From Girardia tigrina (Eukaryota): 64,000 nucleotides of DNA. The notes beneath the pieces were generated by a model. That model saw only the letters and a list, made by a program, of their open reading frames with translations. It made no database searches and was not told the DNA's origin. The stretch covers positions 16,394 to 80,393 of the forward strand of contig MQRK01231351.1 in assembly GCA_001938485.1 (NCBI GenBank). The letters are read 5' to 3'. A program made the position numbers and the translations under genes. Of the stretch, positions 9,091-62,615 are shown piece by piece; positions within the stretch are counted from its first letter, which is position 1, and every line of letters begins with the position of its first letter.

Positions 9091-10871
9091 TAAAAAAAGA
9101 TTTTCTAGGCATATTGTTTTCTAAAATATAATATAATTTTTAGAATATTATATATTCTAATTTATTTTATATTCATATAAACAAATACGCATTTGAGAAA
9201 GGGTTACGCAAAAGAACATTATAATTTCATGTTTCAAATAGCAAAACTAAAAAAAAAGGAAAAGAGTAAAAAGATTTTTTTGATAACTTTATACAATGAC
9301 AATTTTTCATTTAGAAAATCAGATAAAAAGACAAATTACATTACCAAAAAGCTTTTAATCATATCCAAATGAAAAAGCCATCATTAAATTTTAACGGACA
9401 AACATAAAGGTCATGCAATGTTATTTGTTTATGGATTTTTCAACAATAAAATACAAATAAATTCTGTTTAATATTATATTTTGTTTTTAATAATTATTAA
9501 AATATTTTTAAAATTATAAATTTAATTTTCGAAAAAAATTTTATTATTTATTTTTTTTATTATTTAAATTGAATTAGTTATAGCGTAACGGATAAACAAT
9601 ATAAATAAATAATTATTAATTTAAATTTTCCTCTCTAATGGCTTTAAGATTGATTGTCTAGTTCTACATTTTTATAATTACAATATTTTGTTTTATTTAT
9701 TTCGTTCTCTTTTGTAATTTTTTGCAATAAAAAAATGTTTTATAATGGAAATCATCATAAATCCTTTAAAACCACCTTCCATAACATTAAATTTTATTAA
9801 ACAGTAAAAAATAATTGTTCTTATGCGATTTGGTAATAAAAATAACATAATTCTATTATCATTTCACGGATTGTTGAATGGAAATTAATTAATGATAATT
9901 TAATGATATTTTTTATTTTAATGATATTTTACACACAAAAATTTTTAAAAGATTTTAAAACACGTTTTAATTTAACGAACAACCTTTGATAAATTAATTA
10001 ATTTATTTGTTTGTTATTTATTAAAAAACAGAATCGAAAAAAAATAATCGAATAATTTTTCAAATGATACTTTAATTTTTAAAAACTTTTAACCGATTAA
10101 TGGACATTCACAATGTGAAATTTTCTATCATTTTATTCCGCGTTCTTACACTTTTTATTTCAATTTATTACGGTTAAAGTTTTATAAAATAGTAAAAATA
10201 GATTAAAATAATTAATTTTTAAAATTATTTTACATTAACACTTTACTTAATAAAACCACTTTTCCCGGAATAATTTATATTCTCCTTGGATATCTTCATT
10301 CAATTGTTTGAACCCATCTTTTTTTCTTCACTCTAATAAAAACAATAAATATTCAAACAAATTATTTTTATTGTAATAATTTTATTAACTAAAAAACGTT
10401 TATTTATTTATTTTTAAATTATTTTATTGTTATTTTTTTGTGAATTTTTTAATTTAACTTTTTTTCAATAACACAAATTTGTTGAGTTACATTTCATAAA
10501 AAGGGTAGTCTTTAATTTTTTTTTAATTTTCCCCATGAAAAATCTTTGACTTTTTCCGACCTTTCAACAGCTCTGGAGATTTTTTTATAAAAATTTATTT
10601 TCAACTTCCATAAAAGGCATCTTGATACAATAGGGAAGACAACAGATAGGCCGACCACAAAGAATAGACCGACGAAGTTTTGTTCCGATTTGTCGTTAAT
10701 GATTAAATAAATTTAATGAATTATAACTTGATTTGTTTATCTTGTTTACCTACAATCTATTGCTGATGAATAGCTTTTTTCCGCTAATTAAAATTTTATC
10801 AGAAACTCAAAACACTGACCCAGAGAACTGGTCTTCTTTTTTTAAGTCTTCAAATATTTAACCATCAAATA

Positions 10872-13414
10872 CATTGGGCTGGCCAAAAAGTCATTGCGTT
10901 TTTACTAAAATATTTATTATCAAAAAATGACATGGATGCACAAATATTTTTACACGAAATACTGTCCATTATTTTCAATCACTTTCTTCCACCTTTCCGG
11001 TAGCTTCATTATTCCTGATTCCAAAAAAACCTTTGCCTTTGTCAGCAAAAAAGCCGTCTAGGAACGATTTGATGTCATCATCACTGGCGATTGTTTTTCT
11101 GTTTAAGGAATTCTGCAGTGATCTAAATAAGTGAAAATCCGATGGAGCCAAGTCTGGAGAATACGATGGGTGCGGCAAAACCTCCCAACCCAGTGATAAG
11201 AGTTAATGACGAGTGGTCAAACTTGTATGCGGTCTTGCGTTATCATGCTGAACTACAACTCCTTTTCGATTTGCCAATTCAGGACGTTCCTGTTGAATTG
11301 AATGAGCCAATTTCTCCAGCTGACCACAATATCTGTCTGAATTGATGGTTTAATTCCTCGGAAGGAGTTCAAAAAACACAAAAACCATATATCGAGTTTA
11401 CTGAAGAATCCAAGTTTCTTTAAATGACTTCCAACACTTGATTTTGATATTTACAGAGTCTCTGCAACTTCTCTTGTTGTCATATGTGGATTAAATTTGA
11501 TCAGTGCTGTTATTTTGTCGCCATCAACTTCAACTGGTCGAACGGAGCGTGGTGCATCTTTCAGATGAAATTTATCAGAACGAAATTTTGAAAACCAGTA
11601 TTGACACTGACGAAGTATTAAGAAGTCACTACCATATACAAAACATATTTTCTTATGAGCTTGCACAGCAGTTTTCCCTTTGCGAAAATAATGTAACAAA
11701 ACATGACGAATATGTTCATTTTGATTTTCCATTTCGAATTAACGGTAAAGTAATAAATTAAAACAAAATCAATTAATATTTTGTATAAACATAGTCTGAA
11801 AATTAAGGTTTCAGAGTATACTTAGGCTGTCCAAAAAGTCCTCAGGTGGCCTTTAAAAACACACTAATATTTTACAAAATTTAACCAAATTTGAACTAAA
11901 TATTATCAGACTGTCATAAATACTGTGTTAAAATTTCAAAGCATAAAATTAAAAAAAAAGTAAAATTTTGTTTTATTAAAGTATTGAAATATTAAAAGTG
12001 CAGCAAATTCAAATCAAGCGGTTTTTAACAATGGAACCAAATAAATGTTACCAACGTTTTTTTGTTCTAACTCAAAGTAAAAGAGGATTCTCTGCTTCAG
12101 AAAGTCTTCAGCAACTTCAGCAGGCATGGGAAGACACAAATCACCCAGTACTGAAAACTATTCAACAATGGTTGGCTGATTTTAAAAAAGAAAAGCGAAT
12201 GTCCTTCGACGATTCATCAAGAAGTGGCAGGCCGTCATTAATAGACGATGAAAAGATTAAAGCACTCAAAGAAGTGATTGGTGAAGCTCCAAATGCATCT
12301 TTGCGTTATATTGAAAATGAACTTTCTTTAGGCAAAAATACAGTTCACCAAATTTTGAGTGAAAAACTTCATTACAAAAAAGTTTGCTCTGTTTGGATCC
12401 CTCTCGCGAGCTTTCTGCTGCTAATAAACAACAACGCATTAACACTGCAAAGCATATACGCCATGTAATTTCACACGATGGGTGATGAAGCATATTCCAA
12501 CATAGCGATCGAGGATGAGACATGGGTCTTTTTCCAAGGTCGAGGAAAGAAAGAAGATCACAAAGTTTGGATTCCTTCTGATGCTGTTCCACCAAAAATG
12601 ATAAAGCCATCGCCAATGAGTGATAACAAATCTCTTGTTTTCGTAACCTTTACCTGCAACAAACGTTTTAATGTAAAAGCACTGCCATATGGTACCAAGA
12701 TTGATTCCGAGGCGTATGTGAACTTTGTTCATGACACCGGTGAAAAATAGCGGAAACTTTGATCTAACAGCATCAAGCTAAAGAAACTTAAGTGGTTTTC
12801 ATGATAATGCAAGACCTCATTCTAGCAAAGAAACAACTCTTTTTTTGAAAGAAGAAAAATTGAAAAAAATTATCAATCGCCCTATAGTCCAGATTTTAAT
12901 CTGTGTGACAGATTCTTGTTTTCAAAAATGAAGAAAAGTTTTAAAAATCATGTTTTCGAATCACATGAAGAAATTGAAGAAGTTTGTAAATTCTTTTTTA
13001 ATTCTTTATCAACAGAAACATTAAAAGATCAACTAGATAAACTTTTTAACTATTGTCAGTTGGTTATTGACAACAATGGTGAATATGTTGTTGATTAAGA
13101 AATTTTTTAAATATTTTTTTTAAATAAATTTTTAAATTCGCTGCATCTAATTTTTTTTGTTGGTTAATAATATTATTTTTTTGGTAAGTTTCAAATTTTA
13201 TGCTTTGAAATTTTAACTCAGTATTTATAACAGTCTGAATAATATTCAGTCCAAATTTGGTTAAATTTGGTAAAATATTAGTGTGTTTCTAAAAAGGTAA
13301 CCTGAGGACTTTTGGGACTTGAATTGAATTTAAATTTTATCACATCGTTTTATATTTTCAAGCTTTTTATTAGGATGTACTCAAAAACGCAATGACTTTT
13401 TGGCCAACCCAATG
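10872..13414 (-). mobile_element. Mellifera-subfamily mariner with internal deletion, interrupted by a second mariner
   Basis: TIRs TTGGGCTGGCCAAAAAGTCATTGCG / CGCAATGACTTTTTGGCCAACCCAA; ORFs MENQNEHIRHVLLHYFRKGK (11451-11732) and PHPSYSPDLAPSDFHLFRSL (10975-11178). Confidence 0.9.
11821..13320 (+). mobile_element. Divergent DD34D mariner with long (~125 bp) TIRs, nested in the 5' UTR of the mellifera element; frameshifted
   Basis: HTH ..RSGRPS, IEDETW, HDNARPH, QSPYSPDFNLCD (34 residues between D2 and D3); 11829-11950 inverted at 13195-13318. Confidence 0.9.
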
Positions 13415-15149
13415 CAATTGGTTCCTAAATCTTTTTTTAATTAAATTTAATCGATTTGACAAATGTTCATGTTATGAGGATTCAGTTAAAATTTTCAATT
13501 CACCAACTAATTTATAAAAATTCTCTATTTATAATTTTACCAAAAATTAAATAATCATCTGAAACATAAATGTACGTTAAGTTTATAAAATTAAAAAGTA
13601 AATAATGGATTATTTAACAATCTAAAAAAACTGTTTTAATAATTAAAGTTAACAAAAAAACGTAAGTTAAAAAATAGATTAATTAAAGCTGATAGATTTT
13701 CTAAAAGAAGGTATTTTATAAAATTTTAAATTAAGAAATAAAAAAGTTAAATATTTTTAAAACAAGTAATTTGGGTAAAATTTTCATAATGTAGAACGAA
13801 ATTAAGGTTAAAGTTTAATTAAATATTTTTTTAACAAAAATATAAATTTTACTTTATAGAAAATTTTATAAATGGATTTTGGCGATTAATTGGATTAACA
13901 AGAAGAAATTTGTTTAAATTTATGTTTAATATTCATTAATAAAATTTCTATGTGAAATGTTGACCTCTAATTCTGATTCAACCATCATCGAAGATAATAT
14001 CAATGACACTATCATGTACAAAACCTCATTTATTGAAGCTTACCAACCATTTATGTTGTTGGAAGGTCTCGTAAAATATCACAAAAAGAAAAAAAATAAA
14101 ACCAATCTCTCATAATTCCATTAAATTTCATTTTTTATTAAATTTTCTTTATTTCATTTTTTTACATAAGCGATAAAATTAATGTTTTAATAATTGTAAA
14201 GGTAAATATATTTGTTCATTGAAGTCAAATTAAATAATCTATAAATAACAAATATTAAAAATTTTGATTAAATATTAAAGACTCATCGGTGTTTTCATGA
14301 AGTCATTCTTTTTATTTATATATTTTGATTGATGTTACTAAGTTGAAACAAAAACGTTATAAACTAAGATTTGTTTTATAAAACCAACATTTAATTTCAA
14401 TATTTTCAATTGATGTTTTGTGGTAAATATTTTTATTTCAATCATTGATTTTCAAAAAAGTTAGATAAAAGAATATTATTTATATATTTATAAAAAATAA
14501 TAAGAGAAAACAATGAGGAAGGTGAATAAAGTCACACCTTTGGTTTAATAATAAGGTTTATGTAACGATAAAGTTTTCAACTTAAATATAAAATTTTTTA
14601 ATCAAAAATATTAAATTTGAAACTGTCAAGCGTAAGCATTTGACAATTCTCTTTCGGATGATGAAAACGTTGTAAACAAACTTATAACAATTACTCTCAT
14701 TAATATTTTGGCAATATTGAGTTAATATTTGTGGTAAAATATTAATTTAAATCATTTAAAGCATCGTTTGTACAACAATCAAGTCAGCCAAGAATCAAAA
14801 TATCAAATTAACTGTTTGGAAAGTTACAAAAAAATCAAAAATAATTAAATTAATTCCAAATTTTCTGTTAGTAAAACAAAAGTCATTTGTTTAAATGCCA
14901 ATTTTCGATTTTTCTTTCGGAAACTTTAATGCTGTCATAAATTAAGGTGAAATTATTTTTTTTTAAAAAGTATTTTTTTTAAAAAAAGGTACTTTAAGGT
15001 TTTCAAATTTAAAATACATGAATACAAATTTTAAATCGATATAATATGAAAATAAATAAATATTTATAATACTTATATTTAGTACTTATGACCGTTTTAT
15101 ATGATTTAAAGCAAATTAAAAATAATTTTAGAATTATTTTTATAATGTT

Positions 15150-16534: not shown

Positions 16535-17360
16535 ATCGGTGGGTGAGAGGTCCGGCGAGTAGAGTGGATGAGGCAGAGTTTCGTAGCCCAATTTGTTTAG
16601 CTTTCGTAGGGTCGGTTTTGCGATGTGTGACTGGACGTTGTCGTGGAGGAGAAGTGGCCCCTTCATATTGACCAATTTTGGGCACATACGTTGGAGCTCG
16701 AGATGTATTTTGTCAATTTGTTGGCAGTATTTCTCTGAGGTGATCGTTTCACCCATATTCAGACAGCTGTGATAGATGAGACCTGCTGCAGACCACCAAG
16801 CAGTCATTATAACCTTTTTTGGAGGAGTTTCGGTTTCGAAAAGTGATGAAGAGCCTCATCGCGATGTAACCATGTTGCCGAACGTCGCCAATTGTCATAG
16901 AGAATCCACTTCTCATCACACGTCACAATCCGATCGAGAAATGGGTCGTTCTCGTTGTGCAGAAGAAGCGCGGAAAACATCTCAAAACGACGATTTTTTT
17001 GACTTTCGTTCAATTCGTAAGGCACCAACTTATCGAGCTTTTTCGACTTTGCCATTAGCTTCAAGTACCGAGCGACGGTTAAGGGATCAACGCTAATCTC
17101 TTCTGCGAGTGCTCGAACAGTTGTGCGTGGATCGGCTTCCACCAACTTCTTCGATTCGTCGTTGTCAATCGTCGATGGGCGGGTGCCATGAGACTCATCT
17201 TTTAGACTGATTTGTCAGAACGAAACTTTTGATACCAGCGCTGAACCGCGCATTCGTCGACACTTTCCTTGCCCAAAACTTCGTTGATGTTTCTACGCCC
17301 TAGCTTGAACTCATAGAAGTAAATGTTGCGAAAATCACGTTTTGACATTTACCATAAATA
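16535..17360 (-). mobile_element. Truncated cecropia-subfamily mariner, same family as 30454-31689
   Basis: IVTCDEKW, LLHDNVQSH, PHPLYSPDLSPTD; highly similar to the 30.5-kb copy; no TIRs left. Confidence 0.9.
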
Positions 17361-18083
17361 TCGAAATATATATATATATAATTTATGTATATATAATGTT
17401 TTGTTCTTGCAAAAGGTATAATTTTTTGTTCTAATGGACATCACCGCAGTTTTTCTCATATATCTTTGTTGAGTTGTCAATTCATGAAGAACCCTCTTCA
17501 AATGATTGACCGATTTCCTTGAACCACTTCATGTGATATACAATTCATTTATTCAAAATTGCTTATAATGAGTAATTGATTTCATTCAAGAAGCTTTTAA
17601 TATTTTTCTAAGTCGTCAAAGTAGGTGGATGTTCAACTTTGCGTTTTTTTTCGTAGTATAACGATTTTTAGTAGCACGGGATCCGTAGATTTTGACTTAT
17701 GTTCCTCTCAGGTCATCAAACACTTTACTTGCATTTTAGAATGTGCAAATATAAACATATTCATCAAACTAAAATCATACAAATGAAAATTAAAATATTT
17801 CTGAAAATCTTGTCAATTACTTTCGATCAAAAGTATGTTATACTTTTAACATTTTTAAATATGATAAAAGAAAATCAAAAAATTTCTACTTAAAACAAAA
17901 TAATAAAATTTACAATTATACATTAAAAACCATATGATATAAAAATTATAATATATCTCTAAAATATATCTTTCATTTTGGATAATAAAGAGAGAATAAC
18001 TTTCTAAAAATAATATTATTAAAAAAATAAATATTAAAATAAATAAATTAATTAAAAATATAAATTAAAAAAAATAATTCATA

Positions 18084-22584: not shown

Positions 22585-23040
22585 TAATTTTACGGTGTGA
22601 AAATATAACTGTTTGATGGTTTAAAGTACGAAGATGGTCTGAATTTCAGACCGAATAGTTCTGGATTCCACTGTTATCCCGCAGCTGCACCACAAATAAA
22701 CTCATACTAAACTGATCTCCTTAATTTGTCAATCATAGACAATTAAATTGAGCTGTGGACTCGTTATCTTGACTCCGAATCGATAAATAAAGTTTTAAAT
22801 TTTGATCGATGTAGTGACGAGTTCCAGAAATTGGCACAGTCCTATTGACCACAAAAACCCTAGTTAAGAAATTGCTATGCAAAAAATTGTAGAATTTCGT
22901 CCCAGTTTTCCCCCACAGAATCAATTACAATGCAAGCGGTTTTAATAAAGTAATTTTTAGTCAATCTATTTTTCGTTATTTTCTATTCCAGCTAAAGTTT
23001 AAACAGATCTCAGAATAACATGTGCAGTGATCCGATAATT
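22585..23040 (+). ncRNA. Candidate multibranched structured RNA domain
   Basis: GGTCTGA/TCAGACC, GACTCGTTA/TGACGAGTT, CTGTGG/CCACAG, TTGTC/GACAA, TGCAA/TTGTA, CTGTTTG/TAAACAG nested. Confidence 0.5.
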
Positions 23041-23104
23041 GATAGCAAACAAAAAAACTGACTTTTGTTTAATTAAATTAAATTAAAATTATTAAACGTG
23101 GGAA

Positions 23105-23390
23105 ATTCAAATGTGGTAAAAATGTCGATGAGAATAAATTCTTCCTATTTCGGCATCCGGACAACCCACTTGGACGCATCGAGTCTACTACCGACCGATG
23201 CGGCGTCGCGGACCGGACCAACACACTTCGGCGAGCCGCTGTGGGCCGTTTGCGGTGCAGACGCGCGCCCGCATATCGACCGTTGGACACTGGAACCGAC
23301 CGATAATGTCCGACAGCAACAATTTCCCGCACAATTAAGAGTTGCTGGTTGCCGCCACTCGGTTCGGTAGTCGGTACCACAACATGATAA
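23105..23390 (+). ncRNA. GC-rich, highly structured ~280-nt RNA candidate of unknown family
   Basis: Strong GC island; CTACCGACCGATGCGGCG pairs with TGCCGCCACTCGGTTCGGTAG; inner helices TGTGGGC/GCCCGCA, CGTTTGC/GCAGACG, GTTGGACA/TGTCCGAC, CAGCAAC/GTTGCTG; G-U pairs on +. Confidence 0.65.
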
Positions 23391-24639
23391 TGCAATTTTA
23401 GAGTATTTATAGGTTGCAAAAAAGTGTTATCAATTAAATTTTTCGTTTACAAGTTGTTTTACAATAAAAACACAAAATTTCCCCTATACTTAAAATACTG
23501 TAATAATATGCTTTTCAGTAAACGATAAAAACATTAATAAAACGTCATTTTTATAATGTGATTATTTGAATTTGTTCTAAAAGAAATATTTAATTAAATA
23601 ATGATAAAATTAAGTAACCTTTGAAACTAGGAAAAATATTTAGAAATGTAAATTAAATGACATTTTTTTCTTTTGAAAATCTTAAGAGTGATTTTATTAA
23701 AGTCACAACGAAGACTTATCTAGAATTACAAGATTAATAATTCAATAAAATCATGAAATAATTTTTAAACTAAACTTTGATAATCATTAATAATATTGTT
23801 TACATCTGAATTTCTATAAACCAGTACATAAAGATCCAAAGATCCCCGCCATTCTCCTGGCGCGGCCTCCTAGGTTTTGAATGGCGACAGTTTTTGTTAG
23901 TTTGAAATATACAGACGATGTATTATTCAAATAAGATAAACAAAGTTTTAAAATATATTAATTTATAAAATGTTGTTAATTTTTTTACAAAATTATTTTT
24001 TGAAACTTATCATTTTGTATACAAATGAAACTACGATTGTTCAATGGACACAACTTTCCTTTAAATTTTCTGTATGAACAGACAAATATTTTCATAGTAA
24101 TATTTAATATTTGTTAAACAAAATATTAAAAACATTAAAAAAATAATTGGATCTCAAAGTGGTTATAAGAAGTAGAATTGAAAGTTTGCTTGAAAGAGAA
24201 CAATTAGAAAAAAAGAACATTTCCAAGACGAAATAGAAAATATAATATCTTGGTTTAAATAAATATTCTTCTCATTATGACAAAATTCTTTTCGTCACAA
24301 CTTCAAGCTTCGTTGTTCTGCCTCAATCTTGATGGGAATTTGTCTAAAGCAAAACAAAAACATCATCAATAAACAACCAAATTTAAACATTTTTTATATT
24401 ATTATTTTTCAGTGTCATAAATCGAAAATACTTTTTTTAAAAAAAATAAGGTGAAGAATTTATGTTAAACCGTATTTTCTTTCATAAAATGAATCTTATT
24501 AAAAAATGTATCTTGATTAAAAGTCATTATAATTATTATTTATTAAGTTCACTTGTTAACTATTCATTTTTTGATGAAAAAAACATTAGTTTCAAGAGAA
24601 ACATTATAATTCTCCTACTTAGCTACACAATGTCTCCAT

Positions 24640-27167: not shown

Positions 27168-28475
27168 ATTAATAATCAATTCACCTGTATATAAATACAA
27201 AAATGATGATTGTGTAATCGATTGCATGAAATCATGCTAATCAAAAATTCTCAATAAGCTGGTTGAGACTGCCGATTGAACATTGATTTTAGGGCAACGT
27301 GACCTAATTGACAATGCTTCACACGACAGTCTCTCCCAATAACTGTCAAAAGGCTTACACAGAATTTTGAAATTATCAAAATTTACATTTTTTCCTATGT
27401 TCTGCAATATTACTCTTACTCTCTTTTCGACCATGTTCTTGAATTCGTTTACAGAGATGACGGGCAGTCTCTCCAATGTTGCATCGCACCCATTACATTT
27501 ATATTCATAAACAATATCAGAACAAAGTGTTAAAGGTGTAATAGATTTATTACTGAACATATTTTGAATTTTATGAGATCGTGATATAATTTTTNNNNNN
27601 NNNNNNNNNNNNNNNNNNNNNNNNNNNNNNNNNNNNNNNNNNNNAGATTTATTACTGAACATATTTTGAATTTTATGAGATCGTGATATAATTTTTAAAT
27701 TTAATTCATTGTTAGTTGCTTTTAACAATGTATTTTTAAAGTTTTTAAATCCTTCAGAATAAGTTATAATTAAACAATATTTAGGCATATTATTCATATC
27801 TAATGATCCTTCGATTTCTTTCTTAGATCCATCAGGAGAAGCCAAACTCTGATTTTTCGAAAAATCTTTCAAAAGTATTTATCTACNNNNNNNNNNNNNN
27901 NNNNNNNNNNNNNNNNNNNNNNNNNNNNNNNNNNNNTTATCTACTGTTTCCTTTATTAATTTTTCTAGAAAGGATTTAGAATAACCATTCTTATTTAACA
28001 ACGAACTTAGTTTATTAACACTTTCTACAGATTTAACAAAAGTGGATGACAACGATCAGGAGCGATAAATTAAACCTTTAATCATGTTTCTTTTATACTT
28101 AAGTTCACAAAAACTATCTGGTGAAGTATATAAACCTGTATCAGTTTGCTTCCTATAAATTCCAGTCTCGTAACNAAGAGATTTTCTTTCAACCAAAAGA
28201 TCCAGAAAAGGTAAAACTCCATTCTTTTCATTTTCAACTGTAAAAGTAACATTTGAATGTAACGAATTCATAAAATTTAAAAATGGAAGTACATCAGCCT
28301 GATTTTTAAATTTTTTTTAGGAATATATCATCAACATATCGTTTATATACTAAAGGTTGATTTCCATCAAACAGTCTCAACCAGCTTATTGAGAATTTTT
28401 GATTAGCATGATTTCATGCAACCGATTACATAATCACCATTTTTGTATTTATAAACAGGTGAATTGAATATTAAT

Positions 28476-30453: not shown

Positions 30454-31689
30454 TTAGATTGTTGCAAAAGGTATGCAGGTTTTTGATTTTTTTGTATTTA
30501 CTGAAATGTTATACGACTAAAGCATGTATGATGTTATGATATTTGTCTAAAACTTATTATAATGTTTCTGTTAATAATTTCAATTTTAATTGCAGATGTC
30601 AAAACGTGATTTTTGCAACATTTACTTTTACGAGTTCAAGCTAGGGCGTAATGTAGCTCCAACCGATCGACACATCAACGAAGTTTGAGGCAAGGGAAGT
30701 GTCCACGAATATACGGTGCAGAGCTGGTATCAAAAGTTTCACTCTGGTAATACCAGCCTGGAAGATGAGTCTCATGGCACCCGCCAATCGACGATTGACA
30801 ACGATGAATCGAAGGAACTGGTGGAAGCCGATCCACGCACAACTGTTCGAGCAATCGCAAAAGAGATTAGCGTTGATCCCTTAACCGTCGCTCGGCACTT
30901 GAAGCAAATGGAAAAGTCGAAAAAGCTCGATAAGTGGGTGCCTCACGAATTGAACGAAAGTCAAAAAAATCGTTGTTTTGAGATGTTTTCCGGGCTTCTT
31001 CTGCACAACGAGAACGACCAATTTCTTGATCGGATTGTAACGTGTGATGAGAAGTGGATTTTCTATGACAATCGGCGACGTTCGGCAAAATGGTTACATT
31101 GCGATGAGGCTCTTCATCACTTTTCGAAACCGAAACTCCTCCAAAAAAGGTTATAATGACTGCTTGGTGGTCTGCAGCAGGTCTCATCTATCACAGCTGT
31201 CTGAATATGGGTGAAACGATGACCTCAGAGAAATACTGCCAACAAATTGACAAAATGCATCTCGAGCTCCGACGTATGTGCCCGAGATTGGTCAATATGA
31301 AGGGGCCAATTCTCCTCCAGGACAACGTCCGGTCACACATCGCAAAACCGACCCTACGAAAGCTAAACAAATTGGGCTACGAAACTCTGTCTCATCCACT
31401 CTACTCGCCGGACCTCTTGCCCACCGACTACCATTTTTTTAAGCATCTGGACAACTTCCTCAGAAACAATGCTTCAAAAACCAAGACGACACCAAAGACG
31501 CCTTTAACGCTTTCATGCATCCAGAACTCAGGAGTTCTACACTAGGGGTATCAATAAACTTGTTTCTTGTTGGCAAAAATGTATCGATTCTGATGATTTT
31601 TATTTCGATTAATAAAGTTCATTGTGTGCTGAGTTACATTTATTTAAAGTTTAGGTTCAAAAACCTGTATTGCTTTTGCATAAATCTAA
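30454..31689 (+). mobile_element. Near full-length cecropia-subfamily DD34D mariner with frameshifted transposase
   Basis: TA-flanked TIRs TTAGATTGTTGCAAAAG / CTTTTGCATAAATCTAA; MSKRDF..EFKLGR, WVPHEL, VTCDEKW, QDNVRSH, YSPDLLPTDYHFF. Confidence 0.95.
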
Positions 31690-38329: not shown

Positions 38330-38830
38330 TAACGTTTAAAACTCTCGACCTGCCTTTCAGTGGTTGCATCAAATAACTCGTCACACTCACCACACCATCA
38401 GGCATGAAGAACAGATGCCAATAAACTATTGGCGCTAGCTAGGTGTGTTGCTGTCCTCACTGTACTGTATCGGGTTAATACATAATTTTCTCTATTAATT
38501 CATGGCATTAGTGTGCTGAAACAGCTGGTGCTTAGGGTGACATTAATATAGATGTCAGTCTGTGTGACGTGTATTCCGATCATCCAACCATTGATTGGAA
38601 TACATGCAAACAAACACACACAGCTTCTGTATACACTAACGGTGTTATTAATAGCAATTATATCTGTTTTTGCTTGAACACTTGTTTGTATTTCTGGTTG
38701 TTTGTGTGCCCGGGCTCCAAGTGATCAACTACAGCAAACAGACCCACATCTCTCCCGACATTACTTTCTGATTAATGGTACGGCTGCACCAAATTACTGC
38801 TACTGTCAAATTATAATAGCATTTCGTTAT
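38330..38830 (+). ncRNA. Candidate ~500-nt multibranched structured RNA
   Basis: TGTATTCCGATCA(38570)/TGATTGGAATACA(38592), CTATTAAT/ATTAATAG, GCCAATA/TATTGGC, CACACC/GGTGTG, CACTTG/CAAGTG, TCTGTTT/AAACAGA, CAGTGGTT/AATTACTG. Confidence 0.6.
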
Positions 38831-46329: not shown

Positions 46330-47460
46330 AATAAATCTTTATATGATAATGGTTGTTCAAAATCAATAGTGGATAAACTAAGAAAATAAACTATTGATAA
46401 ATTAATTGACAAAAATAATAATACTAAAATTACAGATGTTCAAGATCAAGATCAATTTCGCAACACTAATAATAAGAGTTTAGAAATCAGATATGTTCTA
46501 AGTGTACCATATTCAGAGGGGTTTAAAATATTTAAAAATTATATTTTGAAAACGTTAGACAATGCTATAAGTTGAAAAGTAATATCCTGTACCCAAAAAT
46601 TGAAAGCATATTCTTCAATAAATCTTCAACACCGTTAGGATTGTGTTCATATCTCATTTACCAATATACATGTAATGGGTGTAACGCCACATACATTGGA
46701 AAAACTTCACGTCATCTCTGTAAGAGAATCCAAAAACAAAGTTATTTTTAGTGGCGTTTATACCATTGTCGTTATTAGAGATTTCACAATTCATATTTAA
46801 AACAAAAATTTATTTTTAAAATGTATTTTAATTATAAATAAAATTATTAAATTTAATTTATACTAAACTCTAATTTCTTTAAAAATAATGTCGTTGTAGA
46901 ATTTTATTATAAATTAACATTATAAATTTTACACCGTTTATTAATTATTTTAAAATTCTTATTTTAAAAACTTTTACTTATCATTTTCCTATATTAAATT
47001 TTTTCGACTTTACTTAATGCCAGCTTTTTAGATTTTAAACCCCTTTTTTATTTTATATAAATTATTTAATTTTTGTTAAAGTTTTAAATTAAAAAGATTA
47101 TAAATTATTTGACAAATTGAAAATTTTAAATAACTCCTCGTAGCCGTAATGAAGGTGGAAGTAACATTGTATGACATAGAAGACATTGTAAAGGATACAT
47201 AACTTGACAACACTATTAAATTTTGTACACGCAATTTAAAAAATATTGGGAGAGAGTGACACATGTCAAGCATTATATATAAGATCTTTGGATGCAAAAA
47301 TTAACTTTCAAACTGCACTCTCTACACATTTATTAGGAGTTTGTAAATAATGTGTTGGTGATATATAAATTACACAATCATTAATTCAACTATATAAGTG
47401 ACTTTCATTTTTAAAAAATTCATTTGTTCTGACGATGACGGTTAAGCTGTCAAAATTAAT
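46330..47460 (+). mobile_element. Decayed Penelope-like C-terminal fragment, split by an AT-rich insert, with a degenerate hammerhead at ~47429
   Basis: YQYTCNGCNATYIGKTSRHL GIY-YIG; ALYIRSLDAKINFQ; CTGACGA-T-GACGG..CTGTC-AAAA. Confidence 0.7.
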
Positions 47461-48794: not shown

Positions 48795-48847
48795 GTATAT
48801 ATATATCCATGGAATTTAGAAACCTATTTTTGAAGGCATTTTACTCA
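48735..48847 (+). repeat. Left part of a (TA)n-headed interspersed repeat (possibly Helitron/Helentron-like), split by the RLE retroelement
   Basis: TCCATGGAATTTAGAAACCTATTTTTGAAGGC..TTTACTCA matches 63478-63519. Confidence 0.75.
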
Positions 48848-51800
48848 TAAATATAGATAAAGTTTTTTGCCCGTTATGTATGTCAGACTTGCAATGGATT
48901 CTAGTAGTTTTTGATGTTAACAACAAAACAACCATCGTTTATAATGTAATGGAATCCCTAACACTGGAACAAGAACTGGCAATCAACAGCATTATTGCTA
49001 ATCTTCTCTCCTTCTTTCGATTAGGTGGCGAAGGTTGGATCTTGAAACAATCCAATGATTTGCCAACTTCACAAAAATTTGCAGAGAGTGGATACTGGAT
49101 TGCCAACTCTATATGNNNNNNNNNNNNNNNNNNNNNNNNNNNNNNNNNNNNNNNNNNNNNNNNNNNNNNNNNNNNNNNNNNNNNNNNNNGTTCAAAAGAA
49201 AATTAGACGACAAGAAAAAACTATTAAAGAAAAGAATAACAGAGAATTGCGTTACAAAAAAATTTCAGAGATAATAGTGGCCAACTCCACAAAAAGTGCT
49301 GAAGAATTGGACTCTGTCATTACCAACTACATTTTGCAAGCAAGAGTTAAAACGGTCAAAAATCTCAATGCATCAAGAAATATCAGGAATATTAGAAAAA
49401 AAACGGATGTAAATCTACGACATTACTTTAAAATAAAACCGAAAAAGGCCATGGAAATAATTTTAAGTGACACTACTGTTGATGGAGGGCTATGTTTGGA
49501 ATGTCTTACAAATTACGCCAAATCAAAAGCGACTATCCTCCTGAAACAGACTGGAGCAATGCACCAAACATCAAACCTGGCCCAAAATTTCAATTTCAGC
49601 ATGTCACTCCAGAAGAGATTGTCAACATACTCAAGAACACCAAAAATACTACTCCCGGTATATCAAACATTGGCTATGCAGATATTGACTATTGCGACCC
49701 GGGTTGTCGATTTCTGCCCACATTATTTAATAAAATCATTGATACAGGAGTTATTCCACCAAGTTGGAAGAAATTCCTAACGGTAATAATCCCTAAACCA
49801 GGTAAGTCAGGAAATTACAAAGAAGGATCATGGAGACCAATAGCACTGATGGAATGCATTGCCAAGTTGTTCACATCTTGCCTATGTACTCAACTGGAAC
49901 AATGGCTAGTGAAGAACAATTTAATTTCAAAGTTCCAAAAAGGCATCGGACCATCGGTCGGGTGCGCTGAACACAATAACGTCATGAGAATTTTACTGGA
50001 GGAATATGAACATCTTCATATTGCATTCCTCGATCTAACTTATGCATTTGGCAGCATTCCAATTAATCATATATTAGAAGTTCTCAGAAGAAAAGGTCTA
50101 GATTCATTCTCCTGCTCTCTCATTGCAAATCTGTACTCGGATTGTTCATCAACATATGCCTGCAATGATTGTACGACTGAAGACATATCCATCAGGAGGG
50201 GGGTTAGACAAGGATGTCCTCTTTCAATGCTGCTGTTCAGTGTTGGAATTGATCCAATTTTGGCTGCACTACAAGATAATTATGCTTTTGGTATCGACAC
50301 CGAGGCTGGTATGATCACTTGTCTGGCATATGCAGATGATATTGCATTAGTTGCAACCAGCAACTCTTGTTTACAAGCCATGGTTTCATGGTTGAATGGA
50401 CTTCGATGAAGTTTAACCCAGCCAAATGTGGATATTTATCAACTCCTCTTATGAACGAATCAATCCATATTAATAACATACCAATACCTATAGTAACGGA
50501 TGAAGAAGGTTACCGTTATCTCGGAGTAGACTTTACCAGAAAGACAAAATTCACTCCTGAACGTCTATTTCTATCAGCTATTAAGGACTTGAAAAAAATA
50601 ACCAAATCAATACTATTTCCCTGGCAGAAAATAGAAGNNTATAGAATCTTTATACACTCACGATTCACCTTCTATTTTCAAAACTATAATATACCAAACA
50701 GGGAACTTACGGATTATGGCCACCACGAAACCACGAAGTCTATCTTTAAAAGCGGCCTTGACGTGGAAATTCGTCGTTACCTGAAGAAGATTTGTGGAAC
50801 GGTCCCAAATTCATCCAATGATTACACTTATGCTGACAAGAAAAAAGGTGGTTTAGGTTTAGTCTCTACCCGAGATGAATACGCAATACAATCTATAATT
50901 CAAGCGTACAAGAACATGGTGTGCTCAGACGAAACATCGCGTCATCTCACCTTTATCAATTTATTCAACACCCTAGACAGATATCACGGTACTAAAGAAG
51001 AATGGACACTCTCTGATTACCTAAACTGGATCAACACAGGTGACAAAGAGAATGGATTTAAATCTTGGTGGACGAAGATTCGGAATTCAATCAAATACCT
51101 GAAAGGCATTGGGTTACAAATTCAGTTTGTCACTAACGAGCTAGGTATTTGTTTAAAAGTTCACATATCCAATGATTCGCTGATACTAAGTAAACACTCA
51201 ATAGACAGTATAACTTTCCACTTGCACAGAATCTATAACAAAATGAAATTTGACAAATGGAGCAAACAAAGGATGGCTGGAATGTCAGCCATCTCATTGN
51301 CAGAACACAACTTCAGCTCCAAAGTATTATACAATGAGTCACTATCCATCGAGGAATGGCGCTTTTTACACAGCGCAAGGACAAATAGTTTACCAACAAA
51401 TTATAAGCCGAAAAAACCAAAACAACAATCGATGTGTAGGGCATGTGGTCAAGATATAGAAACACAGATCCATGTTCTATGTTGATGTAAACCCAACAGC
51501 ACTCTGATACAGGCGAGACATAATGAAATCGCAGAAATCGTCACAGATGCTTTACTTGCAGAGAAACCAATTTTAAAAATCATCATGAATCGAGAGTGTG
51601 ATTGGTCTGTGTCGGGAAGCCGGATTGATTTACCAGTTTATAACCATGGAACCAAAGAACTCTGGCTTATAGATATAAAAACCCCTTATGACACTGTCAA
51701 AGCACTTAAAGATGCCAAAGATAACAACAAAAAGAAATATAAAAGCCTGCTAACTGAAGCAAAGGCGGCTCATAAAGGATGGACTGTAATATTAGGAGCA

Positions 51801-52141
51801 ATTGTTGTCGGCTGTTTAGGATCTTGGCCCGCCGATAATGACAACCTGCTTAAAAACAAAATTACATCTTTCAGGTACAACTATAAAAAATTTAACCAAA
51901 ATGTGCATAGTGTCGAATATCAAATATTCCAACTCTACATGGCATAAACACAATACCGGTCAATATAACCCACTGATGTCAAATGCGGTGACGACAAATC
52001 TTACCGACACAGTCAAACCATATGCACCAGTAGCCGGTTGATAACAATAGCACAAGTCAAAGATGCTCTATACAGCGACCATAGCTTTGAGCATCTAATG
52101 TATATGGATATCTTTACATATTTCAACTTGAAATTTTGTCA
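48848..52141 (+). mobile_element. 5'-truncated RLE-type non-LTR retrotransposon (NeSL/Utopia-like, R2 group): Ulp1-like, RT, CCHC and restriction-like endonuclease; frameshifted
   Basis: WRPIAL, FLDLTYAFGSIP, GVRQGCPLS, AYADDIAL, FNPAKC; KKGGLGL; CRACGQDIETQIHVLC*C; ARHNEI, RIDL..IDIK..KKKY; N-terminal FCPLC..QWILVVFD..IVYN. Confidence 0.9.
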
Positions 52142-53891: not shown

Positions 53892-55670
53892 GGTATCACG
53901 TCAAAACGCCGCAAACAAAAACGCCGCGGGTAAAACGCCGCGGACAAAAACGCCGCGTGACAAAAACGCCGCATGACAAAAACGCCGCCGTTTCGACGCT
54001 GGGACATTTCAACGCCAGAAATTAGGAATTTGAGGAATAAAATGAAATAATTTGTTATTAATTAGGAATTTTAGGAATAAAATGATTAATTTGTTATTAA
54101 TTAGGAATTTTAGGAATAAAATGAAATAATTTGTTATTAATTAGGAATTTTAGGAATAAAATGAAATAATTTATTTTTAATTAGGAATTTTAGGAATAAA
54201 ATGAAATAATTTNNNNNNNNNNNNNNNNNNNNNNNNNNNNNNNNNNNNNNNNNNNNTTAATTAGGAATTTTAGGAATAAAATGAAATAATTTATTTTTAA
54301 TTAGGAATTTTAGGAATAAAATGAAATAATTTATTTTTAATTAGGAATTTTAGGAATAAAATGAAATAATTTATTTTTAATCAGGAATTTTAGGAATAAA
54401 ATGAAATAATTTATTTTTAATTAGGAATTTTAGGAATAAANNNNNNNNNNNNNNNNNNNNNNNNNNNNNNNNNNNNNNNNNNNNNNNNNNNNNNNNNNNN
54501 NNNNNNNNNNNNNNNNNNNNNNNNNNNNNNNNNNNNNNNNNNNNNNNNNNNNNNNNNNNNNNNNNNNNNNNNNNNNNNNNNNNNNNNNNNNNNNNNNNNN
54601 NNNNNNNNNNNNNNNNNNNNNNNNNNNNNNNNNNNNNNNNNNNNNNNNNNNNNNNNNNNNNNNNNNNNNNNNNNNNNNNNNNNNNNNNNNNNNNNNNNNN
54701 NNNNNNNNNNNNNNNNNNNNNNNNNNNNNNNNNNNNNNNNNNNNNNNNNNNNNNNNNNNNNNNNNNNNNNNNNNNNNNNNNNNNNNNNNNNNNNNNNNNN
54801 NNNNNNNNNNNNNNNNNNNNNNNNNNNNNNNNNNNNNNNNNNNNNNNNNNNNNNNNNNNNNNNNNNNNNNNNNNNNNNNNNNNNNNNNNNNNNNNNNNNN
54901 NNNNNNNNNNNNNNNNNNNNNNNNNNNNNNNNNNNNNNNNNNNNNNNNNNNNNNNNNNNNNNNNNNNNNNNNNNNNNNNNNNNNNNNNNNNNNNNNNNNN
55001 NNNNNNNNNNNNNNNNNNNNNNNNNNNNNNNNNNNNNNNNNNNNNNNNNNNNNNNNNNNNNNNNNNNNNNNNNNNNNNNNNNNNNNNNNNNNNNNNNNNN
55101 NNNNNNNNNNNNNNNNNNNNNNNNNNNNNNNNNNNNNNNNNNNNNNNNNNNNNNNNNNNNNNNNNNNNNNNNNNNNNNNNNNNNNNNNNNNNNNNNNNNN
55201 NNNNNNNNNNNNNNNNNNNNNNNNNNNNNCCAATTAATAACAAATTATTTCATTTATTCCTAAAATTCCTAATTCATTTCAAATTATTTCATTTTATTCC
55301 TAAAATTCCTAATTAATAACAAATTATTTCATTTTATTCCTAAAATTCGTAATTAATAACAAATTATTTCATTTTATTCCTCAAATTCCTAATTTCTGGC
55401 GTTGAAATGTCCCAGTGTCGAAACGGCGGCGTCTTTGTCCGCGGCGTTTTTGTCTGCGGCGTTTTACGCGCGGCGTTTTTGTTCGCAGCGTTTTTGTACG
55501 CGGCGTTTTTGTTCGCGGCGTTTTTTCACACGTCGTTTTTGTTCGCGGCGTTTTTGTCTGCGGCGTTTTTGTCCGCGACGTTTTTGTTCGCGGCGTTTTT
55601 GTCACGCGGCGTTTTTGTTCGCGGAGTTTAGTCCGCGGCGTTTTTGTTCGCGGCGTTTTGTCGTGGAACC
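53892..55670. mobile_element. Mutator/foldback-type element with modular long TIRs (15-bp AAAACGCCGC repeats plus 40-bp satellite)
   Basis: GGTATCACG...CGTGGAACC termini, mirror-image arms, perfect 9-bp TSD ATTTTTATA; centre is a gap. Confidence 0.9.
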
Positions 55671-56440: not shown

Positions 56441-56527
56441 TTTGAGATCGACCAAGAGACAGCCGCTGCAGCTGTTACAATTCAAGCAACCATTAGAGGA
56501 CACTTAACTAGAAAACATTTAAAAGAG
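56441..56527 (+). CDS. Internal exon encoding an IQ calmodulin-binding motif
   Basis: ttttag|FEIDQETAAAAVTIQATIRGHLTRKHLKE|gttagt; 87 nt, phase 0-0; IQxxxRGxxxRK. Confidence 0.85.
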
Positions 56528-57599
56528 GTTAGTGATATTATTTTAAGAAATTTTTTATTGTAAAGCGTTATAAAATTTATTTATTTCAATCTTCAAGTAA
56601 CAAAATTTTTTGTTTTATGATAAAAGAAACTCAAAGTAACTCTGAGTATCTCTGTCATCTAGAATTTAGGACTCACTTGCTCTTTTATGTCTGTTTCAAC
56701 CACAAAGATTTCATCACGCACTTGTGAAGGAACTGATTCCTCAAATCTCTTCTCATCTTTATTTTTTATATTTTATTAAAATAAAAACTTATTTATTTCT
56801 TTTAATTGAAAGAAGAGAAATTAAATTTCTTTTCGTTTGACTTCATGGGGAAATCTTTCAACATTTTTTTTATTTTAATGTAAAATTACTTTTTTGTTTC
56901 AATTTCTTTTCTTTCATTTGAATTAAACATCTTAATGAAGAAAAATTAAAAATATATCACTTTAATTTCTTGGAGCTTCGTCTATGTCACTTAAGATTTC
57001 CATTAAAATAATTTAGTCATAGTGATTTTTGATAATTTTAATGGTACTCATATATTATTTACTACTCATATTTTCACTTATTAGAATGACCACCCGAACA
57101 TGTTCATTTGGTTTTATGCTTATAGTTTACCAAAATATTTATAGTTCGAAAATTTAAGTTGCAACTTAAACCGTTCTCGGGTTATTTTTTTGAAAATCTT
57201 TGAATGAACTCAACTGAGTCTTAAAAAGAAGGGTGATTAATTGTATTTTTAATTGTATTTGTAAGGCAGTACCAGTGGTCCTAGTGCTTCACAAAATAAC
57301 TTAGATGAAGAATATACAAAATCTTCGAACACGATCACGATGCATGACATGTCAGTGCCCCTCGATAGTACCGCTGAGACGGACTCAGGAGTGATTTCAA
57401 GGGTGGTCCTCGACTTTCGGTTAAGTAATACAAATGATGTGGGGATATTTCGGTGTCCCTTTACAACTTGTTCACAGAAAGACTCGTTCAACACTACTTT
57501 GTGGAATATGATTAGGAAAAATAGACCAAAATAATCAATGATCTTAGTTCATTTTTTATTTTATCTTCTGTTATTTCGTGAGTAATGTAAATATTATAA

Positions 57600-57917
57600 A
57601 GAAGGTGGCTTGGACCATCAGAAAGGAGCTCTGTCCTGACACAGTTTGCATCAAATGAATTAGTTAATTCTACGAATGAGATTTATCAGCAACAATCGGC
57701 GATTTTGGAGCTGCTGTTGACGGAGCAAAATTTTTTGAAGCAAATTCAGTTTATTGTTCAGGTTTACGTACTGAGCTTTGAAATTTTAAAGTTGGAGTTC
57801 TTTCCAAACATTTCTTCTGAAGAAATATTCCTCAACCTAAAATCATATTTCATATGCAATTCCACTTATATTTCCAATGACGATTGTCGCGATTTCAAAG
57901 AATTTTTCAATTATTAG
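57600..57917 (+). pseudogene. Possible RhoGEF DH-domain N-terminal fragment, truncated by a mariner
   Basis: QQSAILELLLTEQNFLKQIQFIVQVY..EEIFLNL resembles DH helix 1 (ELLxTExxY..IFxNL). Confidence 0.4.
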
Positions 57918-58800
57918 GGTGAACCAAAAGTCTTTTCGTATTTTTTATTAAAAATTTAAACATAATTTTACAACAAATGAAAAACATTTAAGTTTCAAAG
58001 TAAAGGCCATTTGAATCTATAGCTTGAATCCAACTATGGCAGTGGTGGCCAAACTGGGTGACGCGACACCCTAGGGTGATTTTTAAAAAGATTTTTACGC
58101 GTAAGTAATTGTTTTATCATACTACTAACGCCTTGTTACAATTCACCAAATGTAACAATTCACCAAAAATTTAATGCAAAGGCATATGGGTGTCGCGAAA
58201 TTTTTCCGTTTACAAAAAGGTGTGGCGGCGCAAAAAAGGTTGGCCACCACTGATCTATGGGCAAGTTGTACGATCCCGCTGCGGTACCAATCCTTGTTCT
58301 TAGAAGCGAAGAACTGGTGACTTTCGTTTTTGACCTCGGCCAGATTATTGAAGCTGCGACCACGAAGAAAGTGTGCCATAGATCGGAAAAGGTGATAGTC
58401 GGATGGCGCAAGATCCGGACTATATGCTGGGTGTGGAAGAAGTTCAAAGGCGTCGAGATTTTTGATTTTTTCTTTTGTTTGTTTGGTGGTGTGCGGTTTT
58501 GCATTGTCCTGTTGTAGAAGAACTCGCTTTCAACTGATCAAAGTGGGGTATTTCTTGCCAAGTGCGCATACATTCGATCAAGTTGGGCGCAGTTAAGGTC
58601 AGCGTCGATGGTACGACCATTTGGAACCAGCTTGAAGTGAATCGCGCCTCCGAAATTCCACCAAACACACAAAAGTGCCTTCCTTGAGAAACGATCTCGT
58701 TTCGCTACTGGTTTCGCCATTTGACCGGGGTCCAACCATTGATTTTGTTGGTCTGGATTACTGAAGTAAACCTACTTTTCATCGCTAGTAACAATGTGAC
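57914..58800 (-). mobile_element. 5'-truncated mariner interrupted by a hAT MITE
   Basis: IVTSDEK, LLCVWWNFGG, DNAKPH, YSPDLAPSDYHLF; 3' TIR TTAGGGTGAACC after TA. Confidence 0.85.
58040..58252. mobile_element. hAT (Charlie-like) MITE
   Basis: TIR CAGTGGTGGCCAA / TTGGCCACCACTG; 8-bp TSD AACTATGG/ATCTATGG. Confidence 0.85.
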
Positions 58801-59019
58801 TGCATAATGGATCGTATGTAATCCAAAATAATTTTTCATAATTTTATTATCCTAACTTCTTAGCTTACCATATATGGACCAAACTGTTTTTTGGATATTC
58901 TACATGAAAAAATAAAAAAATATATAATATAGGAAAAGAGAAATAAAGATTATTATTATTAAAATAAAAAAAATCATGCAGTAAAGGGTTAAAATACAAT
59001 GTAATAAATTATTTGATGG

Positions 59020-59700
59020 TGTAAGTAAAATAATTGAGAAAAGGATGATTTTAAATCCGATATAGGAACGAATGAGAGGCATAATTGTGGTTACACATTA
59101 ACTGTTCTTTATTCTGAAGGTCTTAAAAAATTCAAATCTTTTATTATAATATCAATTAAGACTATGAATACTATGAATTTAAAAATCGTATCAAAAACAT
59201 ATAAAATCCAGAATAAGTTCAGTAATAAATCGAAAACTCCTTTGAGTTTATGCTCGGATCTTGCGCATAAATTTGATTGTAATGGGTGCAACGCCACATA
59301 AATTGAAGAGACAGTCATTCATCTCTGTAAACGGGTTCGTGAGCATAGACATTACTAAGTGGTAGTAGTAATATTGCTGAACATAAAAAAACATTGTAAA
59401 TCTTCTGTTAAAATAAATAATTTTAAAGTTTTATGCAACAATTTTTTAAATTATTGGGAAAGATTCTCATGTGAGGCATTAATAATAAAAGTGGTTAATC
59501 CAGCAATTAATTTCCAATCAAGTCACTTATCAACTTTGTTGAAAGTGTTTACGTGAAACAATAATTACATAATTGATTATGTAACCATCATTTTAACATA
59601 TATAAGGTTAGCAGCTTGAATTAGAATCGCCTGATGATAACGGATATTCCGTCGAAATGTATTACAATAATAAAAAAATTATTTTAAAATGGCGTCTTTT
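59020..59700 (+). mobile_element. Penelope-like 3' fragment (GIY-YIG + pLTR) with a hammerhead-like motif at 59626-59668
   Basis: KFDCNGCNAT, RVREH, EALIIKVVNPAINFQ; CTGATGA-T-AACGGA TAT TCCGTC-GAAA. Confidence 0.8.
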
Positions 59701-61602: not shown

Positions 61603-62079
61603 GTTTGTTAAATGTAAAACTAAAATAGTTTAACAAGTAATAACAACGCTCGGCTTATGTATCATGCATTAACTCATTTTTTGGTTTTGTGGTGAATATT
61701 TTAGAACATAACTTGCTTGGTGTTTATTTGTCAATATTTCTATAGTTTAATTTAAAAACCTTAAGTCGGATGCAAATATTCCGAGAGAAAATAATTGTTG
61801 TTGTCCTCAAAAATTCTCCATAGTGAATTCATAGTGATAACATCCAGTTATACCATAACCATCAATGAATCGTTTGTCTACCTCCCAATTATCATAAGCC
61901 ACGCTTTATTATGATTATTTTTAACTGTCATACCGATAATTCAATTTTTATGTGTAACTTTTATCCAGAATTTGATTTAATTAATCAGTCTTTCATTTCC
62001 TGTAATAAATGAGTATGTTTTGTTTAAAGCACGACAATGTTATTGTTATGCATGTTGTTACATGTATCACAATGCGACC

Positions 62080-62480
62080 ACATAATAGATTTCTACCGTC
62101 CCAAACTAGTATGTAAGTATACAGTACCAGTCAATGTCAGCGGATTTTTGTCGCATGGAGAAAATCAACAAATCGATTTCCATAACATTACCTGCGACGC
62201 ATCCAACCGGAGCACTAATCATTTATCGGGTTTTCAGGTTTAGTCGGTACTGGAAGATCGTCTCACATGGCACTCACGCCGACGAATTTCCATCAAACTA
62301 CCGACACCTAAACCACTCGCATAGTGAGTTTCACCCGATGATTGTTTAGTAGCGGTCTAAACATGGAATCAACATTTGTTCGGCAAATCTCATGTTGATG
62401 ATTTCAGTTGACACATTTTTACTGGTACAGAAATATACTTATTACTGATTTGGGACCCCAGAAAACAATCTATTTATGTC
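62080..62480 (+). ncRNA. Candidate ~400-nt intronic multibranched structured RNA
   Basis: Basal GTCCCAAA/TTTGGGAC, TAAGTATA/TATACTTA, GTACCAGT/ACTGGTAC; branches ATCGGGT/ACCCGAT, GGTTTAG/CTAAACC, TCGGTA/TACCGA, GTCGCA/TGCGAC, TGTTTAG/CTAAACA, ATCAACAT/ATGTTGAT. Confidence 0.7.
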
Positions 62481-62615
62481 ATACCACTAATACCAACAAT
62501 CCTGAAACAACCTTATGTTGATCATTCTAAACAATAAATTTTCCAGATTATTTTTGTGTTTATTAATTTATTTAGTTAATGGAAGATAGAGATCCACTCG
62601 CTCACATTTTCCATT

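Follow-up and report, generated by a model that had tools for sequence, protein, structure and literature searches.

MITEs and other non-autonomous DNA transposons, such as the hAT element Herves and the pogo-like Lemi1 and Emigrant, are short and non-coding; they carry inverted words at their termini, and short repeated words internally. The transposases of hAT and pogo/MITE elements are described as binding repeated, subterminal motifs (PMC3143072, PMC1636448). Here we describe a GC-rich island in a stretch of DNA 64,000 nucleotides long, the whole of which we refer to as ‘the window’. The island resembles these elements in several ways: it is short, no coding capacity was found in it, its terminal words are inverted, and short words repeated within it take the opposite orientation at one end. 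It differs from them in others: its terminal repeat is only 7 bp long, it has no target duplication and no second copy in the 64 kb, and it bears no superfamily signature. We suggest, with a probability of about 0.45, that the island is a stranded piece of a repetitive mobile element, most probably either the end or an interior stretch, devoid of coding sequence, of a non-autonomous, MITE-like DNA transposon; if so, it merely adds to the many repeat fragments of this genome. The island is a real anomaly of composition, with a marginal, strand-neutral fold, and its origin is probably ordinary.

The island and its predicted fold

The window is AT-rich (27% GC), gapped and gene-poor, and contains many pieces of transposons; the genome from which it comes appears to be animal-like and rich in repeats. 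The isolated GC-rich island that a preliminary description of this DNA had proposed is real: it has a core of 61% GC, is single-copy within the 64 kb and is bordered by AT-rich flanks. Maximal-scoring segment analysis places this core, which contains 30 CpG and is assigned to neither strand, at positions 23151–23380. It is third among the 20 segments listed and has the highest GC content of those over 200 nt, and the most GC-rich 250-nt interval in the window (58% GC, 30 CpG) falls in the island. The right edge is sharp and the left gradual, the flanks having 19% and 32% GC, respectively. CpG is abundant, with an observed/expected ratio of 1.45 for 23112–23381 versus 1.06 for the whole window, which shows no overall CpG depletion. 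The island sits inside gap-free, host-like sequence, and no second copy of it was found in the window by blastn, by nhmmer or by a covariance model, the last built from one sequence and of low sensitivity. A patch of 47 nt and 64% GC lies 460 nt from the island (23844–23890); its two divergent ATGGCG/CGCCAT words, which we take to be YY1-like, form an 8-bp inverted repeat. Just left of the island, 22731–22851 is a possible, heavily decayed mariner relic (E = 0.17 against one mariner of the window; no Pfam match).

For the interval in which the island was originally delimited, 23105–23390, the predicted structure comprises a 7-bp outer helix, a side hairpin (23122–23156), a 17-bp inner helix and four hairpins. 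The arms of the outer helix, TGTGGTA (23112–23118) and TACCACA (23375–23381, at the sharp edge of the island), both given for the plus strand, form a perfect inverted repeat that may instead be a vestigial terminal inverted repeat; one of at least 7 bp between the 30-mers at the two ends arises in 210 of 5000 shuffles. The inner helix joins 23187–23204 to 23351–23371, again on the plus strand, through runs of 7, 5 and 5 Watson–Crick pairs (pair probabilities 0.93, 0.86 and 0.66). The best long-range inverted match was equalled by 6 of 400 shuffles, and the inner helix beats the other 394. The four hairpins (23208–23239, 23240–23273, 23282–23314 and 23315–23346) are predicted on either strand, in partly different registers.

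The folding energy of the island is near the level set by its composition, and only marginally better. On the plus strand, the whole island has a z-score of -1.96 (7 of 200 shuffles as good), and on the minus strand one of -0.84 (38 of 200). The slightly wider interval 23095–23400 gives -1.36 (14 of 100), the segment 23186–23372 gives -2.3 (4 of 100), and the hairpin interior alone (23208–23350) gives -0.99 on the plus strand and +0.28 on the minus. When 70 GC-rich tiles of 150 nt are ranked by folding, neither of the two from the island is among the best 15. The closing helix depends, moreover, on where the island is taken to begin. Its outer pairs have a probability of 1.0 when the 5' edge is at 23103 or later, and of only 0.03–0.15 when it is at 23090 or 23098; a shift of about 10 nt collapses the closing helix, and a 10-bp helix between 23098–23107 and 23321–23330 (plus strand) takes over once the edge is extended to 23098, the outer helix dropping to 0.03–0.11. 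The closing helix and four hairpins of the preliminary description are reproduced for its own interval, with an inner helix that few shuffles equal, but neither stability beyond composition nor robustness to the boundary is confirmed. Elsewhere in the window, an unassigned, moderately GC-rich stretch at 38342–38790 includes one 150-nt tile with a z-score of -3.5 on the plus strand, in a 20-shuffle scan.

There is no strand signal in the island. The same closing helices and four hairpin intervals form on the minus strand, at -98.0 kcal/mol versus -94.7 kcal/mol on the plus, and the difference has a z-score of -0.89. G–U pairs, earlier held to be biased to the plus strand, make up 7 of 76 pairs there and 8 of 82 on the minus strand; they are rarer in the real sequence than in shuffles (6 against a mean of 9.4), and both closing helices on the plus strand are purely Watson–Crick. 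The TTTT that had been put forward as a possible Pol III terminator does exist (23396–23399, plus strand), but it stands at background level: among 4684 positions taken at random, 28% have a run of four T no more than 15 nt away. In DNA of this kind, a strand cannot be read from G–U pairs counted by eye, nor from runs of T. On the transposon reading favoured below, the fold would be a by-product of inverted words in the DNA and of 61% GC, and this would account for its presence on both strands and for the absence of strand-specific G–U pairs.

Mobile DNA as the favoured source

The island is a non-coding, GC-rich block with two inverted repeats, a short one at the termini and a longer one within, and with seven polarised ACCGA/TCGGT words between 23190 and 23375, counted without regard to strand. 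ACCGA occurs at 23190, 23194, 23295 and 23299, and TCGGT at 23359, 23364 and 23371, so that the words flip at the island's right end; half of the ACCGA words lie mid-island, away from the ends. In 46 of 2000 shuffles the commonest 5-mer occurs at least seven times. Eleven other segments belong, with the island, to the 12 best-scoring GC segments, and the tools identify 7 of these as DNA of transposons or inverted repeats: four are of mariner type, two are the arms of a single inverted-repeat element, and one is a palindrome at 62 kb. Of the remaining 4, one is, by eye only, what we take to be Tc1-like, and three are unassigned to repeats. It is the strand-symmetric Watson–Crick repeats, the flipping words and this local base rate, taken together, that lead us to favour a piece of a transposon. 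By analogy, the ACCGA/TCGGT words would once have been subterminal sites, bound by a transposase encoded elsewhere, and this binding would have paired and cut the ends of the element. The copy has probably since lost its recognizable target duplication and become inert, and its RNA fold would be a side product of the inverted words and the GC content.

No target duplication flanks the 7-bp repeat. A 9-bp AATTAAATT duplication (23080/23085–23431) is at chance level (588 of 1807 random windows), as is a 12-bp inverted repeat in the flanks (equalled in 31 of 462 controls); the candidate duplications are AT-rich, and old copies lose such duplications. No long palindrome is formed by the island's flanks (379 of 500 shuffles do as well), and a test of wider halves (17 of 500 shuffles) depends on an AT-rich match. 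Neither the island nor the DNA beside it matches a transposon protein. With no target duplication above chance, no second copy and no long terminal repeat, we assign the island to no superfamily. A solo LTR or Helitron end was considered and rejected, there being no target duplication and no diagnostic termini (the latter judged by eye). The island's GC content, 61%, is higher than in any of the window's transposon segments longer than 100 nt (43–58%). Old DNA that is not under selection should drift toward AT here, and the patch would therefore be either young, in which case crisp ends would be expected, or under selection. This excess over recognized transposon segments keeps alive the idea of selection on an RNA or a regulatory element.

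The 62-kb element, at 62015–62539 with its centre near 62270, is a decayed, long DNA palindrome. Its arms align from 62015–62139 to 62539–62409 and beyond (0 of 500 shuffles as good). It folds strongly, with z-scores of -5.6 on the plus strand and -3.2 on the minus, because it is such a palindrome; it has no relevant Rfam match, and we read it as a relic of fold-back or MITE-like type, not as an RNA gene. It shows that, in this genome, even a strong fold can be mere decayed palindrome. The helix sequence TACCGA/TCGGTA, which the island had been said to share with this element, is present in both, but in opposite order: the 5' arm is TACCGA in the island and TCGGTA (62244) in the 62-kb element, and no strand flip reconciles them. 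Their local alignment is equalled by 82–304 of 500 shuffles, their global alignment in the same orientation by 52 of 500, and their collinear chain of words by 70 of 1000. The island's covariance model finds no real second match in the window, the 62-kb element included, and no upstream word common to the two was found. With the alignments in the shuffle range and the word order inverted, we reject homology between them.

Alternative readings

The alternative that survives best, unlikely though we consider it, is a single-copy gene for a structured ncRNA outside Rfam, transcribed by Pol III and serving as a protein scaffold by way of its multi-helix junction. Such a gene could lie on the minus strand, running from a TATA-type promoter and G23380 to a run of five T at 23118 (263 nt), or on the plus strand, running from internal A and B boxes to the four T that end at 23399. 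The outer helix at the island's edge, the inner helix with its 394 of 400 shuffles beaten, and the z-score of 23186–23372 would suit it, and the size and GC contrast of the island are typical of small stable RNAs. On the minus strand, a candidate TATA-type box, TATAAATA (23404–23411), starts 31 nt upstream of G23380, with a chance of 0.4–1.7% from local density, and the first run of at least four T past 23380 is the T5 at 23118–23122. On the plus strand, a Pol III A-box-like word (23114–23124) matches the consensus exactly, and a B-box-like word (23177–23185) matches it save for a mismatch at the first G. Such a pair occurs anywhere in 33 of 1000 shuffles, but in only 2 of 1000 if its A box must fall within the first 30 nt. 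Neither strand has an internal run of four T, and the absence of a target duplication also fits a gene. However, the two promoter readings lie on opposite strands, so that at least one of these 1%-level matches is chance, and about 25 motif classes were tried. The minus-strand transcript is no more stable than its shuffles (z-score -0.29, 33 of 100) and, ending at the T5, would lose the outer helix; the B box lacks its first G, G–U pairs show no strand bias, and the fold depends on the boundary chosen. There is no upstream word in common with the 62-kb element, and no relevant Rfam family at E up to 10. Three arguments for a plus-strand RNA fail, given that the G–U bias is absent, the T4 is background and the link to 62 kb is not homology. 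The island may yet be the plus-strand, Pol III-terminated RNA of a new family that the preliminary description implied; if single-copy in the genome and conserved, it would be an RNA of 260–290 nt outside all 4227 Rfam families.

Known RNA families account for the island less well. It had been said to lack the hallmarks of SRP helix 8, RNase P/MRP CR-V, U snRNA, 7SK and telomerase templates, and searches by motif (with consensus motifs for the RNA families) and by Rfam agree. Rfam gives 0 matches in the window, the island included, at gathering score, and only chance ones, from no plausible family, at E up to 10; ARAGORN finds no tRNA or tmRNA. RNase P and MRP RNAs are like the island in size, and the minus strand has an end-joining helix and, following a GAAA word rich in purines, a weak pairing that resembles P4 and contains a bulged U. 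The duplex of this substitute pairing has -3.2 kcal/mol, 54 of 5000 shuffles give one like it, and threading the island costs 16 kcal/mol before P4. CR-IV is described as having A1, G2 and A7, and MRP RNA a GARAR pentaloop in P8 (PMC13184271). Both are absent from the minus strand, and the sole GARAR on the plus strand lies in a stem near the 5' end. The island also lacks GAAAGUC/GGAAnnUC and any Rfam match, and the core words of CR-I and CR-V are absent in place on both strands, the one loose CR-V-like pattern (23174) being mid-island, the wrong place; we reject this family. 7SK snRNA is rejected as well. An alternative plus-strand fold of the island resembles it in that a helix closes the ends, a hairpin comes first and another, at the 3' side, precedes a U run, but this fold exists for one choice of 5' edge only, 13 nt separate the 3' hairpin from the U run, and there is no Rfam match. 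The island contains no GATC, and hence the GAUC of the 5' hairpin is missing; one 7SK-like RNA of a fly is reported to carry the variant GAUG (PMC8406779), and GATG occurs at 23127.

SRP RNA was rejected because the helix 8 motif with its GNRA loop is not matched at up to two mismatches and there is no Rfam match. Self-cleaving ribozymes were rejected for want of CUGAnGA (hammerhead), an HDV-like P3/L3 and an Rfam match, and Sm sites and C/D boxes were rejected or found at chance level. tRNA-derived SINEs and 7SL-type Pol III units are like the island in that it has A- and B-like words, 63 nt apart, near the plus-strand 5' end, and about 290 nt to a T4. The island is unlike them in its lack of a tRNA fold, of the first G of the B box, of an A-rich tail, of a target duplication and of the SRP helix 8 motif. 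The A-rich or simple-repeat tail and the target duplication of a tRNA-derived SINE are both absent; of its tRNA-like head there are the exact A box and the B box with its one mismatch, and ARAGORN finds no tRNA. A scan for bacterial promoters and terminators, irrelevant here, was at shuffle level.

One version of the minus-strand gene can be compared with the insect telomerase RNAs that have type-3 snRNA promoters (those of Hymenoptera, Lepidoptera and Coleoptera). Like them, the island's minus strand has a TATA box at -31 and about 260 nt to a T run. It carries ACCGAACCGA (23359–23368), two units complementary to the telomere repeat TTCGG and at the same time an arm of the inner helix; templates for TTAGGG, TTAGG, TTAGGC, TCAGG and TTTGGG are absent from the island. 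TTCGG is known as an insect telomere repeat, from earwigs (PMC11829193), and a limited literature search found no described telomerase RNA for a TTCGG lineage such as earwigs. The island would then be an snRNA-type gene for the telomerase RNA of such a lineage, with TATAAATA at -31, a start at G23380, the template within the first 25 nt, a drawable pseudoknot downstream of it, and about 263 nt to U5. We give this version scarcely any credence. The complement of TTCGG occurs in 39 of 5000 shuffles, and that of any one-step variant of TTAGG in 41 of 2000. Unlike the insect RNAs, the island has its template-like word only 12–15 nt from the start, and largely paired (mean unpaired probability 0.38–0.40; opening cost 4.4 kcal/mol). 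A pseudoknot 3' of the template is among the listed features of telomerase RNAs (PMC9841428), yet one can be drawn here in 132 of 300 shuffles too. A type-3 promoter pairs a species-specific PSE with the TATA box, and the window has no snRNA gene to supply the PSE. Should the host's telomeres be TTCGG, the island would offer a candidate telomerase RNA open to direct test. Altogether there are four hints at chance level (about 1%): on the minus strand the TATA-type box with its T5, the complement of TTCGG and the P4-like pairing, and on the plus strand the A- and B-box-like words. They were spotted before testing, among about 25 motif classes; they implicate different strands and families, and cannot all be true.

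It is also unlikely that the island is a cis-regulatory block, or that it belongs to a Pol II transcript as a GC-rich leader or first exon (a transcript starting, for example, about 30 nt past the minus-strand TATA); the GC content would then reflect factor-binding sites rather than RNA structure. The canonical TATA at the sharp edge is in keeping with this, as are the CpG richness (1.45) in a window without CpG depletion (1.06), the second small GC patch with its two divergent ATGGCG words, and an island that is single-copy in the window, non-coding and weakly folded. Against these stand the frequency of TATA-like words (3.7 per kb on each strand of the window), the lack of any recognized gene within several kb on either side, and the inner inverted repeat, which is left unexplained.

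A protein-coding exon, from a fast-evolving gene or a transposon ORF, is very improbable. Six stop-free frames of 48–122 codons overlap the island, but open frames are expected at its GC content. Pfam is negative for all six, and a PDB search of the island's frames is likewise negative; three of the six were tested by Pfam or PDB only. The plus-strand frame has no homologue in a set of 5.8 billion proteins and no Atlas match, one minus-strand frame has 0 matches in 1.84 billion proteins, and another has none in prokaryotic genomes. GC by codon position is 0.55/0.55/0.65, and by eye neither edge has a clear splice acceptor. A GC content so far from the host average would suit a contaminant, prokaryotic DNA acquired horizontally or a lone fragment of an rDNA spacer or expansion segment, but such a source is just as improbable: the island has no phage or plasmid match better than E = 1 and none in E. 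coli genomes, 185,579 prokaryotic genomes contain no exact 22-mer of it, the sequence around it is host-like and free of gaps, and no rRNA model matches in the window, though a lone spacer fragment would not score.

Other elements in the window

Mariner-type copies occur at 10850–13450, 16536–17367, 30577–31550 and 58100–58900, those at 16.5 and 30.6 kb being 91% identical and in inverted orientation. An element at 53903–55670 has inverted arms, 88% identical over 295 nt, which consist of GC-rich subterminal repeats of 15–16 nt around a 40-nt tandem array and assembly gaps. A reading frame at 57265–57914 is weakly RhoGEF-like (E = 0.005); homologue searches with it and with a 3.6-kb ORF were empty. 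An IQ-motif exon lies at 56441–56560 (Pfam E = 2e-7). A broken LINE at 48820–51944, presumably NeSL/Utopia-like, encodes a Ulp1-like protease and a reverse transcriptase. The protein nearest to the latter, P0001, is 96% identical, and other matches among the strongest, from a sponge, spiders, ants and a scorpion, are 33–38% identical. Three fragments, at 27240–28413, 46390–46748 and 59038–59298, are mutually similar, and we take them to be pieces of Penelope-type elements.
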